Source: a virus
Direction: 5' to 3' (one strand)
DNA: 64,000 nucleotides
Virus record (IMG/VR): IMGVR_UViG_3300034072_000578
Span: 44,413-108,412 of that record
Below, one piece after another: positions 9,086 to 33,049 of the stretch (its first letter is position 1; every line of letters begins with the position of its first letter). The translations under genes and the position numbers were made by a program. The notes under the pieces are model-generated. The model had not been told where the DNA came from and made no database searches. It saw only the letters and a list, made by a program, of their open reading frames with translations.

Positions 9086-9162
9086 GCGCGTTTAGCTCAG
9101 TTGGTAGAGCAGTCGGCCCCTAATCCGACAGGCCACGGGTTCGATCCCTGTAACGCGCACCA
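9086..9162 (+). tRNA. atypical tRNA with 8-nt anticodon loop CCCCTAAT (Arg CCT or suppressor-like CTA)
   Basis: GCGCGTT/AACGCGC acceptor, GTCGG/CCGAC stem enclosing 8 nt, TTCGATC T-loop, CCA. Confidence 0.7.
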
Positions 9163-19212: not shown

Positions 19213-19422
19213 TCAGCAAGGGCCTACCCTGTAACGCGGTTCATTATCCGGCCCCTTATAGAGGTTCATGCATTCATCACTAGTAGCAGGGTCCGCTACA
19301 GTAATGGGCTTAGCCTCCATAGTAGGGGCGGGTTGTATGTAAGTATTAACCGCCACCATAGCAGACAGTGCAATACAGGCCATGCTAATGGCGATGACAA
19401 ACAGAAGACAATTCTTAAACAT
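19213..19422 (-). CDS. small secreted/membrane protein
   Basis: Hydrophobic N-terminus. Confidence 0.5.
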   Translation of the reverse strand: MFKNCLLFVIAISMACIALSAMVAVNTYIQPAPTMEAKPITVADPATSDECMNLYKGPDNEPRYRVGPC

Positions 19423-20707: not shown

Positions 20708-21757
20708 TTAGAGCATTTCAAGCGCCAGCGACATTGCCGCATCTTTCGCCCGATTGCCGTTGCCGATAGTGGCGCTTTCCCACCGCTTGCCTTCCTTAGT
20801 GCGGGCAACGTGATCCTGATAGAAGGTGACGGCATTAAGAGCGCCCCAAAGCGTGCCATCTGCTGCTGCCTTATCCGCACCCGGACTATCGGTGAAAAGG
20901 CGGACCATTTGCGCAACGTTATTGCGCTGGTTACTTGTCACGCCTTCCCGATCAAAATCGAGTTCAGTGCGAAGCCAATCGGAGTCATCCTTAAGGGCTT
21001 TCGGACTGTAAAGCTTCGCGAAGAAACGCGAAAGCTTGTCATCAGTCATACGGACCTTGCTCATTGCCTTTACGGCTTGAACATATTCCGCGAAAGCCGA
21101 GTCGAATTCGCCCAATTGAGTAAACAGCTTATCAGCGTCGAATTCGCCGCTATTGCGTTGTTTCGCCGTTGTTTGGGCGTTCATCACCGCCGAAAGACTG
21201 ACAGTGTTTTGACAAACAACCCGCACCGACGTTGCACGGGCAGTCCGCGCATAGGTTCCGTCGTAGGAAGTCAGCAGCAGGATATAGGGAAGGATGATAT
21301 CGCCAGCGATGTCGCCTTGCCCCTCTTCACGCTTGGCAAGCCCCCATACAACGCGACCGCCCTTTAGAGCGCCCGCAACGTCCATCTTAAAGCCGTTACC
21401 CTTAACAAGGCTCATAAGCCCCTCTAGCAGGTCAAGGGGTTGCGCGGGGTCATAGTGCGACTCCGACATCACCGAAAGGGGATCGCCGGTGTCAGTGCGA
21501 TACATGACTGCGCGGTTTTCATAGGAACGAGTCAGCATGGCCAGCGATTCATCATCCCCTTCCTTGAAATTGGGGTTAGGGATCGAATAGAAGGCAGGGG
21601 CCTTTGCGACCTGATAGTCAAGGCCAGCAACCTGCGCGATTTGTGCGGCGTCCATATCATCGGTGATATGATTGCCAAAGCCATGCCATGGCTTACCCTC
21701 CGAAGCGCGGTAAGCGATAGCGGCCTTGCCAAGGGTGAAGTCAAGTGCGTGGGACAT
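20708..21757 (-). CDS. DUF932/DUF945 (TIGR03299-like) phage/plasmid protein
   Basis: PWHG.G, AGLD..V.K, AGALKGGRVVW, YILL.TSYDG, VRVVCQNT, GTLWGALNAVT.Y.DH. Confidence 0.88.
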   Translation of the reverse strand: MSHALDFTLGKAAIAYRASEGKPWHGFGNHITDDMDAAQIAQVAGLDYQVAKAPAFYSIPNPNFKEGDDESLAMLTRSYENRAVMYRTDTGDPLSVMSESHYDPAQPLDLLEGLMSLVKGNGFKMDVAGALKGGRVVWGLAKREEGQGDIAGDIILPYILLLTSYDGTYARTARATSVRVVCQNTVSLSAVMNAQTTAKQRNSGEFDADKLFTQLGEFDSAFAEYVQAVKAMSKVRMTDDKLSRFFAKLYSPKALKDDSDWLRTELDFDREGVTSNQRNNVAQMVRLFTDSPGADKAAADGTLWGALNAVTFYQDHVARTKEGKRWESATIGNGNRAKDAAMSLALEML

Positions 21758-21816
21758 AAATAAAGCCTTTCTAAATGTTGCGGAGTCTTTCGCTCCCAAA
21801 GCTAGTGGCGCATTAA

Positions 21817-22017
21817 TTAATATCCGAATATTTCCGTATGCCGTTCGGCCCATGCAAGGGCAATTTCCCGCATCTGGTCGGGAGTATAGAGCCGCGTCAC
21901 ATTGGACGCCCACAAACTACCGTAGGCAGTAGCGTAAAAGTTATCTTTATTAACGGCGATATCCTCAATGCCCTTAATTGCCTGTTTCATTGTTTCATCG
22001 CTAATAAATTGTTTCAT
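21817..22017 (-). CDS. hypothetical protein
   Basis: 66-aa coupled ORF. Confidence 0.5.
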   Translation of the reverse strand: MKQFISDETMKQAIKGIEDIAVNKDNFYATAYGSLWASNVTRLYTPDQMREIALAWAERHTEIFGY

Positions 22018-23299: not shown

Positions 23300-23824
23300 C
23301 TATGGTGAAAGTTGGCCGGTTCCCGGTTTCAAAGTTGATTTCCAGCCAGTTCCCAATTTTATCTTTGATATTTGGGATTTATGCACACCAAATAGTTTAG
23401 CTATATCTTTATGATACATTCCGGTATCCAATAGCTTTCTAATTTCTTCTACTTTTGTTTCTGTCAATTTAGAATTAGGCTTTTCAGAGCCTTTTAATGC
23501 TTTGGAATAATCTATCTTACCATTCCTAACCGCATCATCCGCATTATCTTGGTAAGTTCCCCAAGCTAAATTAGTCCAAACATTATTAGACTTATCATCA
23601 TCTAAGTGCCTACAGACAAATTTACCGTCTGTGGGCTTAGGTCCGTTAAATAAAGTGCATACCCATATATGGATATTATAATCTTTGCCACCACTTATAA
23701 TATTTAGATAACCGGGTGTGGTAACTTGCGGCTTCCTAAATCTATTAGTAGTCGGATTAAATACCCTACCTAAGTTGGATATTAATAAGGGTGTTTCTGG
23801 TATGGGGAGGAATGTTTCTTTCAT
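23300..23824 (-). CDS. HNH homing endonuclease
   Basis: ISNLGRV, H..V...F.GP, RHLDDDKSNN..NLAWGT..DN..D, C-terminal HTH; GGAG RBS. Confidence 0.88.
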   Translation of the reverse strand: MKETFLPIPETPLLISNLGRVFNPTTNRFRKPQVTTPGYLNIISGGKDYNIHIWVCTLFNGPKPTDGKFVCRHLDDDKSNNVWTNLAWGTYQDNADDAVRNGKIDYSKALKGSEKPNSKLTETKVEEIRKLLDTGMYHKDIAKLFGVHKSQISKIKLGTGWKSTLKPGTGQLSP

Positions 23825-24113
23825 TTCTCCCGCGTAAGATACAAAATGCCAAAAATCAATAGACAGTAGTATCCCAAAATGCCAATTAATGAGAAACCTA
23901 AAATGCCCATATCTCATTAACTCCATAATGCCAGAATATAAGAAACCCCATTAGAAACGAAAATAGGAGAGGTTGACCCGAAGCCAACGCTCTCCTACTG
24001 ATTCGCTGTCGCTTCACGAATCATGCTCCCTATTTACGGGCATAAGGGAGATTGCCCTATCATAATAAACTGTTGGTCATTACCTATACCTCCAATTAGA
24101 GTGGAAATAAGTG

Positions 24114-24551: not shown

Positions 24552-25166
24552 TTAGTGCGTCAAAACCGTTGCCTCTTCGCTCGCTTCGCCGCCTTCCTGC
24601 TGGCCCTCTTCCTTGTTTTCTTCGGAGTTGCCCGAAAGATGCTGACGGGCACCAGCCAGCGCTTCGGCGAGATTGTTGCTGGAATTCGCCGCAGCCGCAC
24701 CAGACCGCGAGGTCGGAGTCTTGCGAACATGAGGCTCACCATCCGGCAGACGGGTGATATAGGCGAATTCGCCATCCTCATCCGAAAGCGTGTCGAACTT
24801 GCGTCCTGCCCATTCCCGGCCTGCCTGCGTCACGTTGTTGAGCTTCGTAACCACGCCCATCATGAACGAACGGAGGGGGTTCTTGCCGCCCTCGGCAGTC
24901 TTGGGGATCGCCACCTTGGCGGTCATGCCGACGTTCAGCAGAGCGATATCGGGGCTGATGGCGTTGAGGGCTTCCACAAGGCTCTTGCCACCCTGTGCGG
25001 CCTTATTGACCTTCTTACGGCGGAGTTCGTTGGGATCGAAGTTGGCGATGATGCCACCACGGGCAGCAGCTTCTGCCACTTCTGCCTTCACCAGCTTGCC
25101 ACCGACACGGACCTTGCCGGCCTGATCGACGGTGAAACCGGCCTGTTCGATTGCTTCCTTGTTCAT
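24552..25166 (-). CDS. hypothetical pre-early protein with GC-rich, host-like codon usage
   Basis: 204 aa, own promoter, AAGGAAG RBS and terminator. Confidence 0.75.
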   Translation of the reverse strand: MNKEAIEQAGFTVDQAGKVRVGGKLVKAEVAEAAARGGIIANFDPNELRRKKVNKAAQGGKSLVEALNAISPDIALLNVGMTAKVAIPKTAEGGKNPLRSFMMGVVTKLNNVTQAGREWAGRKFDTLSDEDGEFAYITRLPDGEPHVRKTPTSRSGAAAANSSNNLAEALAGARQHLSGNSEENKEEGQQEGGEASEEATVLTH

Positions 25167-25451: not shown

Positions 25452-25539
25452 GTTGACCGGGCAGCTAGGTTTTCGGGTGGGGGTGGATAACCCAGCTATG
25501 AGGGGGCTTCATTGCGTCGGAAGGACACACCCGGTCAAC
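25452..25539 (-). ncRNA. putative small RNA
   Basis: 10-bp closing stem GTTGACCGGG/CCCGGTCAAC directly downstream of the 25575 promoter; no ORF. Confidence 0.45.
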
Positions 25540-25575: not shown

Positions 25576-25632
25576 GCGATATCTTTGAACCAGAATAAAA
25601 CGAAACCAGAAAGCCCGCTAACCTTATCTAAA

Positions 25633-25648
25633 TGTTTCACGTGGAACA
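25633..25648. promoter_or_regulatory. parS: parS-like ParB binding site
   Basis: TGTTTCACGTGGAACA (reverse complement TGTTCCACGTGAAACA) matches the parS consensus TGTTNCACGTGAAACA. Confidence 0.75.
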
Positions 25649-25765
25649 CTCTAAGGTTAGATTAGGGAACCTTTAGAAGGCAAAATAAAAGCCCCGCATC
25701 CTTAGACGCGGGGCAACCTAATAACCATTCCTTAAGCTTCTTGATGATCCGCTTTAGCTTGCGCT

Positions 25766-26464
25766 TCATTCCAGATATCCTTTCACTTCCGACTCAACCC
25801 CCTTGCTGAGCTTCACCTTAGAACCTTCTTCATAGCCATGTCCAGCTATTTCTTGGCTTCCGGTGTAAAGGGCAATATCTTTCTTGCTGGTCTTTTGCCC
25901 TTTGGCTTTGGGCATTTCCCTAAGAATGATATCTTGTTTCAGCACAATAAGAGCGTTACCAGCTACTTCCTTTTCTGCAATCATTTTAACTAGGGATTCA
26001 TGAACCGCCACAAGGAACCCCAATTTAAAGTTATGCTTGATTTCATCACCCTTAACCCCATTGTTAATGAGCCGGTGATAAGCAACAGTCATGGGAAGCT
26101 TATGATAGCCGGTGATAAGGCTATCTGAAATGAGGTCATAAAGCCAGTTGGCATATTGAAGGTCTACGGGAAGACCGTAAAAGATGATGTTTTTATTGTC
26201 TTCGCTTTTAACCGCATATGTATCGGTAAGCTTAGCAATGGCCTTACAGATAAGCTCCATCTTATCCGTCTCTTTGCGGGGCTTCTTAGTAAAGCTTTCA
26301 ACCTTACTGGACTTAACTTCTAGGTCAGTCTCAGTGAGGCGATACTTTGCCATCATCTTTTCGAAAGCATTAGCAAACGCCATTGCCTCTTCGGGAGTTC
26401 CAGCGTTATTAGCCTTCGCTTTAATTGCGTTCAGCTTGCGGATGATGTCGTCCCGGTTGGTCAT
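25766..26464 (-). CDS. DUF2786-domain protein
   Basis: N-terminal II.KL..I.A.A....T.EEA..F...MMAKY.L; YG...D...A..L; F..GF. Confidence 0.8.
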   Translation of the reverse strand: MTNRDDIIRKLNAIKAKANNAGTPEEAMAFANAFEKMMAKYRLTETDLEVKSSKVESFTKKPRKETDKMELICKAIAKLTDTYAVKSEDNKNIIFYGLPVDLQYANWLYDLISDSLITGYHKLPMTVAYHRLINNGVKGDEIKHNFKLGFLVAVHESLVKMIAEKEVAGNALIVLKQDIILREMPKAKGQKTSKKDIALYTGSQEIAGHGYEEGSKVKLSKGVESEVKGYLE

Positions 26465-32157: not shown

Positions 32158-32604
32158 TTAATCTTCGATTCGCAGCAGCTTCACCCCAGATTCGGCGAAA
32201 AGCTGTTCCGAAAGGGCAATCTCATCCGCCCATCGCGTCAAAAGATCGTCAGATGCCGGGATTGTATAGACCGTCTTGATGCCATTAGATATGATCTTTA
32301 ATGCACACTTAGAACAAGGTGGATGCGTTACAACCATTCCATATCCGAAAGTGCATTCTCTCTTATGGTCTAATGCGTTGGCTTCTGCGTGGACGATACG
32401 GTCATATTTCCACTGGCGATCAGCTATCATTCTCTCTAGGTTATCTGGGATGCCCCTAGGAAGCCCGTTAAAGCCGCATGAGACGATGCTTTTGTCTGGG
32501 CGGTATATGATAGCACCGACTTTCGTAGAAGGGTCTAGGGAGCCTCTGGCGACCGCCAAGGCCACATTTGCGAAATAGTTCTGCCATTTACTATTCAACA
32601 ACAT
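32158..32604 (-). CDS. dCMP deaminase
   Basis: S.DPSTKVGA, GFNG.P, HAEANA, PCSKC. Confidence 0.92.
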   Translation of the reverse strand: MLLNSKWQNYFANVALAVARGSLDPSTKVGAIIYRPDKSIVSCGFNGLPRGIPDNLERMIADRQWKYDRIVHAEANALDHKRECTFGYGMVVTHPPCSKCALKIISNGIKTVYTIPASDDLLTRWADEIALSEQLFAESGVKLLRIED

Positions 32605-33049
32605 TTAATACCGCGAATTCTCCATGATGCTCTATGGCTGCAAGGTTGTATGCTTTTGCTGCATCCTTTGGGTCCGAATAATAACCCAGATGCTTTGTTT
32701 TCTTGTTATAAGTGATTTTAGCGCACCATCTATTGCGCTTCTTATCGAAATGGACACCCTTAAAGCCGCTAGTGTTCCTACTCGTTATCCTAGTATTGTA
32801 GGCATTTTGGCCTATACTTGCGTTTCTAAGATTGGATAATCTATTATCTAGTCGGTTTCCGTTCTTATGGTCCGCCACACCCTTGTCTAAATTCAGAATG
32901 AAACGCTGCATCGTGATACGGCGTCCACATATTGTAGTCTGTGCGTAGCCATTCTCATCTATCCACCAAGAATAATAGGATAATAACGGATATAGCTCTT
33001 CATCAATTAGAATCGGTGTCCCATTAGTTGCCAGAATCTCATTCGTCAT
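32591..33049 (-). CDS. HNH-AP2 homing endonuclease
   Basis: DHKNGNRLDNRLSNLR and NTSGFKGV...W.A.I...HLG...AA.AYN.AA..HGEFA. Confidence 0.92.
   Translation of the reverse strand: MTNEILATNGTPILIDEELYPLLSYYSWWIDENGYAQTTICGRRITMQRFILNLDKGVADHKNGNRLDNRLSNLRNASIGQNAYNTRITSRNTSGFKGVHFDKKRNRWCAKITYNKKTKHLGYYSDPKDAAKAYNLAAIEHHGEFAVLNVVE

Follow-up and report, generated by a model that had tools for sequence, protein, structure and literature searches.

The phage record analysed here, IMGVR_UViG_3300034072_000578, comprises 108,412 bp, and the window, i.e. the whole stretch of DNA under study, is 64,000 nucleotides long and corresponds to bases 44413-108412 of that record. Within this window, a parS-like 16-mer lies between genes at the boundary of two transcription units, where the minus strand is the coding strand. 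Read along this strand, a gene encoding a DUF2786/DUF7168 protein is followed by its terminator, 30 nt of spacer, the parS element, approximately 45 nt of further sequence, a promoter-like site, a leader and, finally, the gene for a protein of 204 amino acids (table 1). The 16-mer agrees with the chromosomal-type parS consensus TGTTNCACGTGNAACA in 16 out of 16 positions, i.e. with 0 mismatches, and it is the single match found when the whole 108,412-bp genome is searched with up to one mismatch allowed; from base composition, 4.4e-4 matches to the consensus family are expected per genome. The original prediction of a consensus chromosomal-type parS at this place is thus borne out by an exact, intergenic and unique match. 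Half-sites of parS are not enriched across the genome according to a composition-based count.

Table 1. Features at and around the parS site, in window coordinates.
Feature	Position	Strand	Remarks
parS 16-mer TGTTTCACGTGGAACA	25633-25648 (genome 70045-70060)	.	chromosomal-type consensus match, single copy in genome
left arm CTAACCTTA of inverted repeat enclosing parS	25618-25626	.	perfect 9-bp arm
right arm TAAGGTTAG of inverted repeat enclosing parS	25652-25660	.	perfect 9-bp arm
intrinsic terminator of upstream gene	25714-25691	-	10-pair G+C-rich stem and T run; kept in L208 relative
upstream gene, DUF2786/DUF7168 protein (phrog_421, function unknown)	25766-26464	-	precedes the terminator
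promoter-like TTGACC-N19-TAGACA	25575-25545	-	two GAATC in spacer; directly downstream of parS element
leader inverted repeat GTTGACCGGG / CCCGGTCAAC	25452-25539	-	perfect 10-bp arms, 68 nt apart
downstream gene, 204-aa protein, function unknown	24552-25166	-	G+C 60% versus 46% for the genome

The two arms that enclose parS are 100% complementary to each other. The site had been described as centred in this larger inverted repeat, and the repeat is indeed perfect, but its spacers to parS measure 6 nt on one side and 3 nt on the other, which places the two centres 1.5 bp apart. As RNA, the 43-nt parS element folds at -16.4 kcal/mol with a z of about -3 on either strand, and a search of window positions 21-29 kb against Rfam yielded nothing significant. 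A megablast search with the parS region against cultured phages found no match.

The neighbourhood of the site can be compared with that in L208, a 1.9-kb metagenome contig which carries relatives of the flanking genes, with the upstream gene at 40% identity. In this contig, the conserved terminator is followed by a hairpin with 17-bp arms and a 19-nt loop at the aligned position and then by the conserved promoter part TTGnCCGAATC, i.e. the -35 and CGAATC part of the promoter-like site is kept, and no parS is found in it at up to three mismatches. Since L208 thus has a different hairpin at the position of parS and no parS, a hairpin may be a requirement of this slot in its own right. The downstream gene is real, because L208 has an ORF in the corresponding position whose product shares 47% identity with the 204-aa protein. 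This protein has no match in Pfam, PHROG or the Atlas, and a search for relatives of its gene among viral contigs gave nothing; the upstream gene found two distant matches (22-26%) in viral contigs and none in genome contigs. The gene for the 204-aa protein is preceded by a structured leader of about 450 nt with promoter-like sites, and a second TTGACC is included in an arm of the leader inverted repeat. The arm of the genome that contains parS is variable. It harbours two genes for HNH homing-type endonucleases, one at 23300-23926 (-) with a C-terminal HTH and another at 32591-33049 (-), and is flanked by a DUF932 gene (20708-21913, -) and by the DUF2786/DUF7168 gene, both of which belong to families that are common on plasmids and integrative elements. 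The landing pad that parS was proposed to form with sigma54, gyrase-like and GANTC sites is not supported. Genome-wide, GANTC is rarer than expected, with 262 sites as compared with 414 predicted from composition.

Phage lineage and lifestyle

TerL of this phage is 50-55% identical to its counterparts in the Rhizobium phages B1VFA and RHEph10, in Pseudomonas Nickievirus and the Stenotrophomonas phages BUCTxx99 and ANB28, and in SSU5-like phage-plasmids of Salmonella, E. coli and Klebsiella. The genes follow one another in the same order as in SSU5 and BUCTxx99, with 28 proteins common to the phage and BUCTxx99. The phage is a member of an SSU5-like supergroup which takes in phage-plasmids. Further kin appear as contigs of approximately 96-113 kb in isolate assemblies, among others of Faunimonas, Magnetospirillum and Roseospira, and all kin that were identified infect or reside in Proteobacteria.

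With respect to lifestyle, the genome encodes RNR, ThyA, SbcCD, ligases, PNK, NAD-salvage genes, a portal protein and TerL, no tyrosine or serine recombinase or integrase was found in it, and 26 tRNAs lie within the window. Such a number of tRNAs, together with many nucleotide-metabolism genes, is typical of virulent phages and counts against a role of parS in partition, as does the description of the related phage ANB28 as a lytic siphovirus that has no integrase, forms pinpoint plaques, shows a latent period of approximately 90 min with a multi-phase growth curve and is a candidate for phage cocktails (PMC11881566). The original prediction had simply taken the phage to be lytic. This is not established, because the SSU5-like supergroup includes phage-plasmids and because kin occur as contigs of about 100 kb in isolate assemblies; the phage may be virulent, and a carrier or plasmid-like state is a family trait. 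There is also no basis for assigning the site to a first-injected segment of the genome, as had been assumed, since the exact terminal repeat of the record, which is 127 bp long, is most simply explained as an assembly overlap, with the true ends of the genome probably not given by the record. One of the tRNAs, called by ARAGORN at window 9086-9162 (+), has a four-base anticodon call (ccta), i.e. an anticodon loop of 8 nt.

Partition-type genes and parS in relatives

It had been stated that parA and parB are absent from the window. This is literally true, but a gene for a protein with a ParB_N domain is located 1.8 kb before the window start and 27.4 kb from parS (genome 41961-42608, -; an ORF of 215 amino acids, or 203 from the likely start). 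Its product matches PF02195 (44.6 bits) and phrog_723, ‘ParB-like partition protein’. Matches to Noc and ParB/Spo0J in PDB and Foldseek searches end at about residue 125, and neither HTH_ParB nor any other HTH family matches the protein. An AlphaFold (AF2) model built with 46 homologues (pLDDT 83) consists of a ParB/Srx N-domain, a disordered linker and two helices, and again resembles Noc and ParB over approximately 126 columns, i.e. in the N-domain, while the C-terminal half of the protein contains 36 acidic versus 12 basic residues. The gene was present in 13 out of 13 relatives tested, including phages of E. coli, Klebsiella, Rhizobium and Pseudomonas, and it occurs in relatives with as well as without parS. 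Owing to the missing HTH, the acidic C-terminal half and its nature as a core gene that is found also in parS-less relatives, this protein is unlikely to be the partner of parS. A phage-encoded ParB elsewhere in the genome, which the original prediction had itself named as the counter-case, hence comes down to a ParB_N-only protein without HTH whose gene does not co-vary with parS. In relatives, this gene usually comes as a tandem pair; the phage has one copy, and two ORFs of 51 and 84 amino acids, the latter winged-helix-like, follow instead.

A ParA was not found in the phage genome either, with no match to PF13614 at E<=1. A RecA-like protein, gp175-1230, gave a weak match to PF01656 (CbiA), the only one to this family, and was rejected as a ParA candidate. 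Thus, neither a ParA-type ATPase nor an HTH-containing ParB, as expected of a self-encoded parABS system, is present, and in contrast to the centromeres of such systems, which lie by the par genes and are usually iterated, the parS described here is a single site at a distance of 27.4 kb from the ParB_N gene.

Conservation of the site in related phages had been proposed as a check. A total of 59 genomes or genome fragments (50 from IMG/VR and nine from cultured phages; approximately 5.7 Mb, in which about 0.02 chance matches are expected) revealed one further lineage with parS, i.e. the Stenotrophomonas phages BUCTxx99 and ANB28 with one site each (TGTTCCACGTGGAACA at 19276-19291 and TGTTTCACGTGGAACA at 2565-2580, respectively), which differ from one another solely at a degenerate position of the consensus. 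In BUCTxx99, a terminator hairpin is followed after 4 nt by parS and then by approximately 640 nt of non-coding sequence inside a block of small genes, with the next promoter-like sequence about 600 nt away from parS. ANB28 has the same layout and is about 90% identical to BUCTxx99 from the terminator onward, with a different gene upstream. In BUCTxx99, parS resides in the same variable arm as in our phage, between the exonuclease/RNR and the helicase/ParB_N/TerL blocks. Both Stenotrophomonas phages keep the 16-mer without the outer inverted repeat, which suggests that selection acts on the 16-mer as such. Approximately 75 nt downstream of parS, BUCTxx99 (L218 5368-5395) and, at the matching place, ANB28 (L220) share the identical sequence CGCGTGAAACACATATCGTGGAACA, which consists of two direct parS half-sites 6 nt apart.

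Conservation thus extends to these two phages, in the same arm and with a common layout, but not to some 60 other related genomes or fragments, some of them from phages of Rhizobium and Pseudomonas, i.e. of hosts in which ParB is to be expected. At up to one or two mismatches, parS was absent from the 50 IMG/VR relatives, from five Rhizobium and two Pseudomonas phages and from four Caulobacter/Brevundimonas phages that were also searched. A Caulobacter-type host, as envisaged in the original prediction, is not supported. The four closest IMG/VR fragments (TerL 75-86%) stop before the parS region, and G004, the IMG/VR copy of the closest full relative (a fragment of 63.8 kb), ends about 11 kb short of it. 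In five isolate genomes, parS was not found on the phage contigs, save for one possible match with one mismatch in an Acinetobacter genome. Isolate genomes that harbour related elements have between one and ten consensus or near-consensus parS sites each on other contigs, and the chromosomes of Faunimonas, Magnetospirillum and Roseospira carry consensus parS. Apparent parS sites near the ParB_N genes of Acinetobacter and Oxalobacter elements were rejected, as these matches fall on other contigs, which differ in length.

The distribution of parS can be set against that of a ParA/MinD-like gene (PF13614), which is found in 18 out of 20 near-complete IMG/VR relatives and in about 20 out of 25 relatives overall, where it lies near the ParB_N gene. 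The RHEph10 copy, which lies beside the helicase and ParB-like genes, carries the annotation of a partition ParA-like protein; B1VFA has a sub-threshold match. Our phage, BUCTxx99, ANB28, nickie and two IMG/VR relatives do not have a ParA-like gene. The three genomes with parS are thus all among those without a ParA-like gene, and parS is missing from each of the 20 genomes that carry one, while nickie and the two IMG/VR relatives have neither. This complementarity is statistically weak (p of about 0.03), with only two independent parS lineages behind it. The pattern is suggestive, though not proof, of a host-type parS that could substitute for a self-encoded partition function.

Outside of this family, the exact 16-mer TGTTTCACGTGGAACA is found in at least 119 IMG/VR contigs, whereas a reversed and equally palindromic control occurs in 2, which corresponds to an enrichment of at least 60-fold. 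A ParB_N domain was detected in 4 of the 50 parS-bearing IMG/VR records examined among the matches listed; of the parS-bearing viral genomes that are at least 90% complete, again among the matches listed, 3/22 encode ParB_N, 4/22 a tyrosine integrase and 1/22 ParA. Among the matches listed, parS sites are outside of open frames in 26% of cases, as compared with 6% for random positions. None of the loci listed for these at least 119 contigs is related to our phage or to BUCTxx99.

Probable loading of host ParB and its possible consequences

An important question is what a host-type parS might do on this genome. The best reading is that the phage DNA would load host ParB, as the original prediction had proposed, because the site is a real and non-random host-type parS and the phage encodes neither a ParA nor a full ParB to go with it. 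From the known biochemistry of ParB, which recognizes parS with its HTH domain, closes into a clamp in a CTP-dependent manner and then slides, we consider that host chromosomal ParB probably loads at the phage parS. With the phage DNA in the cell, a dimer of host chromosomal ParB would recognize parS through its HTH domain, bind CTP, close into a clamp and slide onto the flanking phage DNA, such that clamps would build up a partition complex on each copy of the phage genome. In the step that is the least certain, host ParA and perhaps SMC would then position or segregate the unintegrated genomes in a plasmid-like, carrier or delayed-infection state. That the predicted loading serves to position or partition unintegrated phage DNA via host ParA is the leading, though tentative, proposal, which we regard as possible without being quite probable. 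If so, parS would in this lineage replace the ParA-like gene carried by most relatives. It seems rather doubtful to us that this can be generalized to the SSU5-like supergroup, i.e. that a single host-type parS functionally replaced a ParA-type partition gene of the element itself and that the lineages without the ParA-like gene, namely this phage, BUCTxx99 and ANB28, are segregated as unintegrated replicons by host chromosomal ParABS.

The presence of a host-type parS on a phage is not new in principle, with the precedent being phi29: according to PMC2731898, which summarizes Meijer et al. 2005, host-type parS is carried by phi29 and Nf, both of which are virulent phages of Bacillus; the genome of phi29 has five such sites, which are described as bound by host Spo0J, and this protein is implicated in segregating the phi29 genome into the prespore. 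Common to phi29, Nf and the phage studied here is a host-consensus parS on a phage without a functional ParB of its own, by which host ParB (Spo0J) could act on the phage DNA and the segregation machinery of the host could move it. In phi29, however, there are five sites, a sporulating Gram-positive host and entrapment in spores, whereas here a single site is carried by a 108-kb siphophage; since the relatives of this phage infect non-sporulating Proteobacteria, the downstream use of the site must differ from that in phi29. Our search of the literature turned up no report of chromosomal parS occurring naturally in phages that infect Gram-negative bacteria, which does not prove that none exists. 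A second parallel comes from B. subtilis, where, in work by Lin and Grossman in 1998, a single chromosomal parS reportedly stabilized an unstable plasmid. As would be the case here, a lone consensus site in cis sufficed for a foreign replicon to be partitioned by host Spo0J/Soj, although that replicon was an engineered plasmid rather than a natural phage genome. Finally, there are the partition cassettes that phage-plasmids encode themselves, such as parABS of P1, sopAB of N15 and those of SSU5-like elements, all of which exemplify the need of extrachromosomal phage genomes for active partition, and with SSU5 our phage also shares collinearity and a TerL of about 50% identity. Each of these elements encodes a ParA as well as a protein that binds a centromere private to the element, in contrast to our phage, which has a host-type site and no ParA or HTH-containing ParB.

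If host ParB does load, phages of non-sporulating Proteobacteria would exploit the segregation machinery of their hosts with 16 bp and no protein of their own, and the phi29 case would be extended well beyond spore entrapment. Within this SSU5/nickie-like, proteobacterial lineage, a single parS is linked to two cultured phages as well as to an absent ParA-like gene. The main value of the finding may lie in these cultured phages, as ANB28 and BUCTxx99 both carry parS and so open the idea to a direct test in culture, with a bearing on phage therapy. A ParB-dependent carrier state could, for instance, explain the 90-minute latent period and the multi-phase growth curve of ANB28. Should the generalization to the supergroup be true, apparently ‘lytic’ phages that are therapeutic candidates would have a hidden heritable carrier state, and phages of hosts that do not form spores would widely rely on an orphan host-type parS.

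Host ParB may also load for purposes other than partition, i.e. for titrating ParB, ParA or SMC, for having the phage DNA organized by SMC, or for insulating or repressing the adjacent promoter, although we consider this set of functions unlikely. All of the evidence for a genuine parS would apply equally. In addition, the appearance of the phage as virulent, with no integrase, many tRNAs and nucleotide-metabolism genes, would fit such functions, but they offer no account of why the parS-bearing phages are precisely those without a ParA-like gene. In the titration variant, arrays of ParB clamps on replicating phage genomes would deplete the host origin of ParB (and of ParA or SMC) and thereby interfere with segregation and division; a single site, however, could sequester little ParB before the phage has reached a high copy number. 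In the promoter variant, ParB spreading would insulate or repress the promoter 60-90 bp downstream, in line with the location of parS between a terminator and a promoter, or directly after a terminator in the Stenotrophomonas phages. A study on the repression by P. aeruginosa ParB of promoters adjacent to parS3 and parS4 (10.1101/151340) counts in its favour. In BUCTxx99, however, some 600 nt separate parS from the next promoter-like sequence, which speaks against control of a promoter.

Quite improbable in our view is that the hairpin or palindrome represents the functional unit, either as an RNA structure (a second terminator or an element for processing or stability) or as an operator for a phage-encoded regulator, with the parS identity being incidental or secondary. 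The stable fold of the 43-nt element and the hairpin without parS that takes the aligned position between the conserved terminator and promoter part in L208 would be consistent with it, but constraint on a hairpin alone would not produce an exact 16/16 match to the parS family, the Stenotrophomonas phages keep the 16-mer without the outer repeat, and an enrichment of 60-fold or more among viral contigs speaks for the letters of the 16-mer being what is selected.

A chance occurrence without function is very unlikely because of this enrichment, the recurrence in relatives and the common layout. It is true that there is only one site, that most relatives have no parS and that a very large search is bound to meet some chance 16-mers; yet 4.4e-4 occurrences are expected per genome, at least 119 viral contigs with parS stand against 2 with the control, and a second lineage shows the same layout where about 0.02 chance matches would be expected over the approximately 5.7 Mb of relatives. 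Least probable of all is that parS serves as the centromere of a partition system of the phage itself with the ParB_N protein as its ParB, since the matches of this protein to PF02195 and phrog_723 and the ParA-like gene near ParB_N in relatives are outweighed by an N-terminal ParB/Srx domain that stands alone without HTH_ParB, the acidic C-terminal half, the gene's presence in all 13 relatives tested including parS-less phages, its distance from the site and the lack of ParA in the phage.

Beyond this lineage, the viral contigs in which the 16-mer is enriched at least 60-fold, and which mostly have no ParB, hint at host-mimic sites acting in cis as a class that is general and has received little description. 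Other parS arrangements were observed in the same collection of viral contigs. L139 (IMGVR_UViG_3300037518_000322; 116,662 bp) has at least 11 exact parS copies within approximately 4 kb along with a strong ParA match (PF13614, E 6e-63) and an integrase, and no match to ParB_N. A family of small viral contigs carries, at one end, exact parS sites in pairs with a distance of 42 bp, i.e. L092, L107, L121, L129, L142, L143 and L153, which come from sample 3300045988 and are approximately 11 kb long, as well as L161, which comes from another sample and is 6.7 kb long. In L121, L142, L143 and L153, parS is found at both ends in inverted orientation, as if it were part of terminal inverted repeats.
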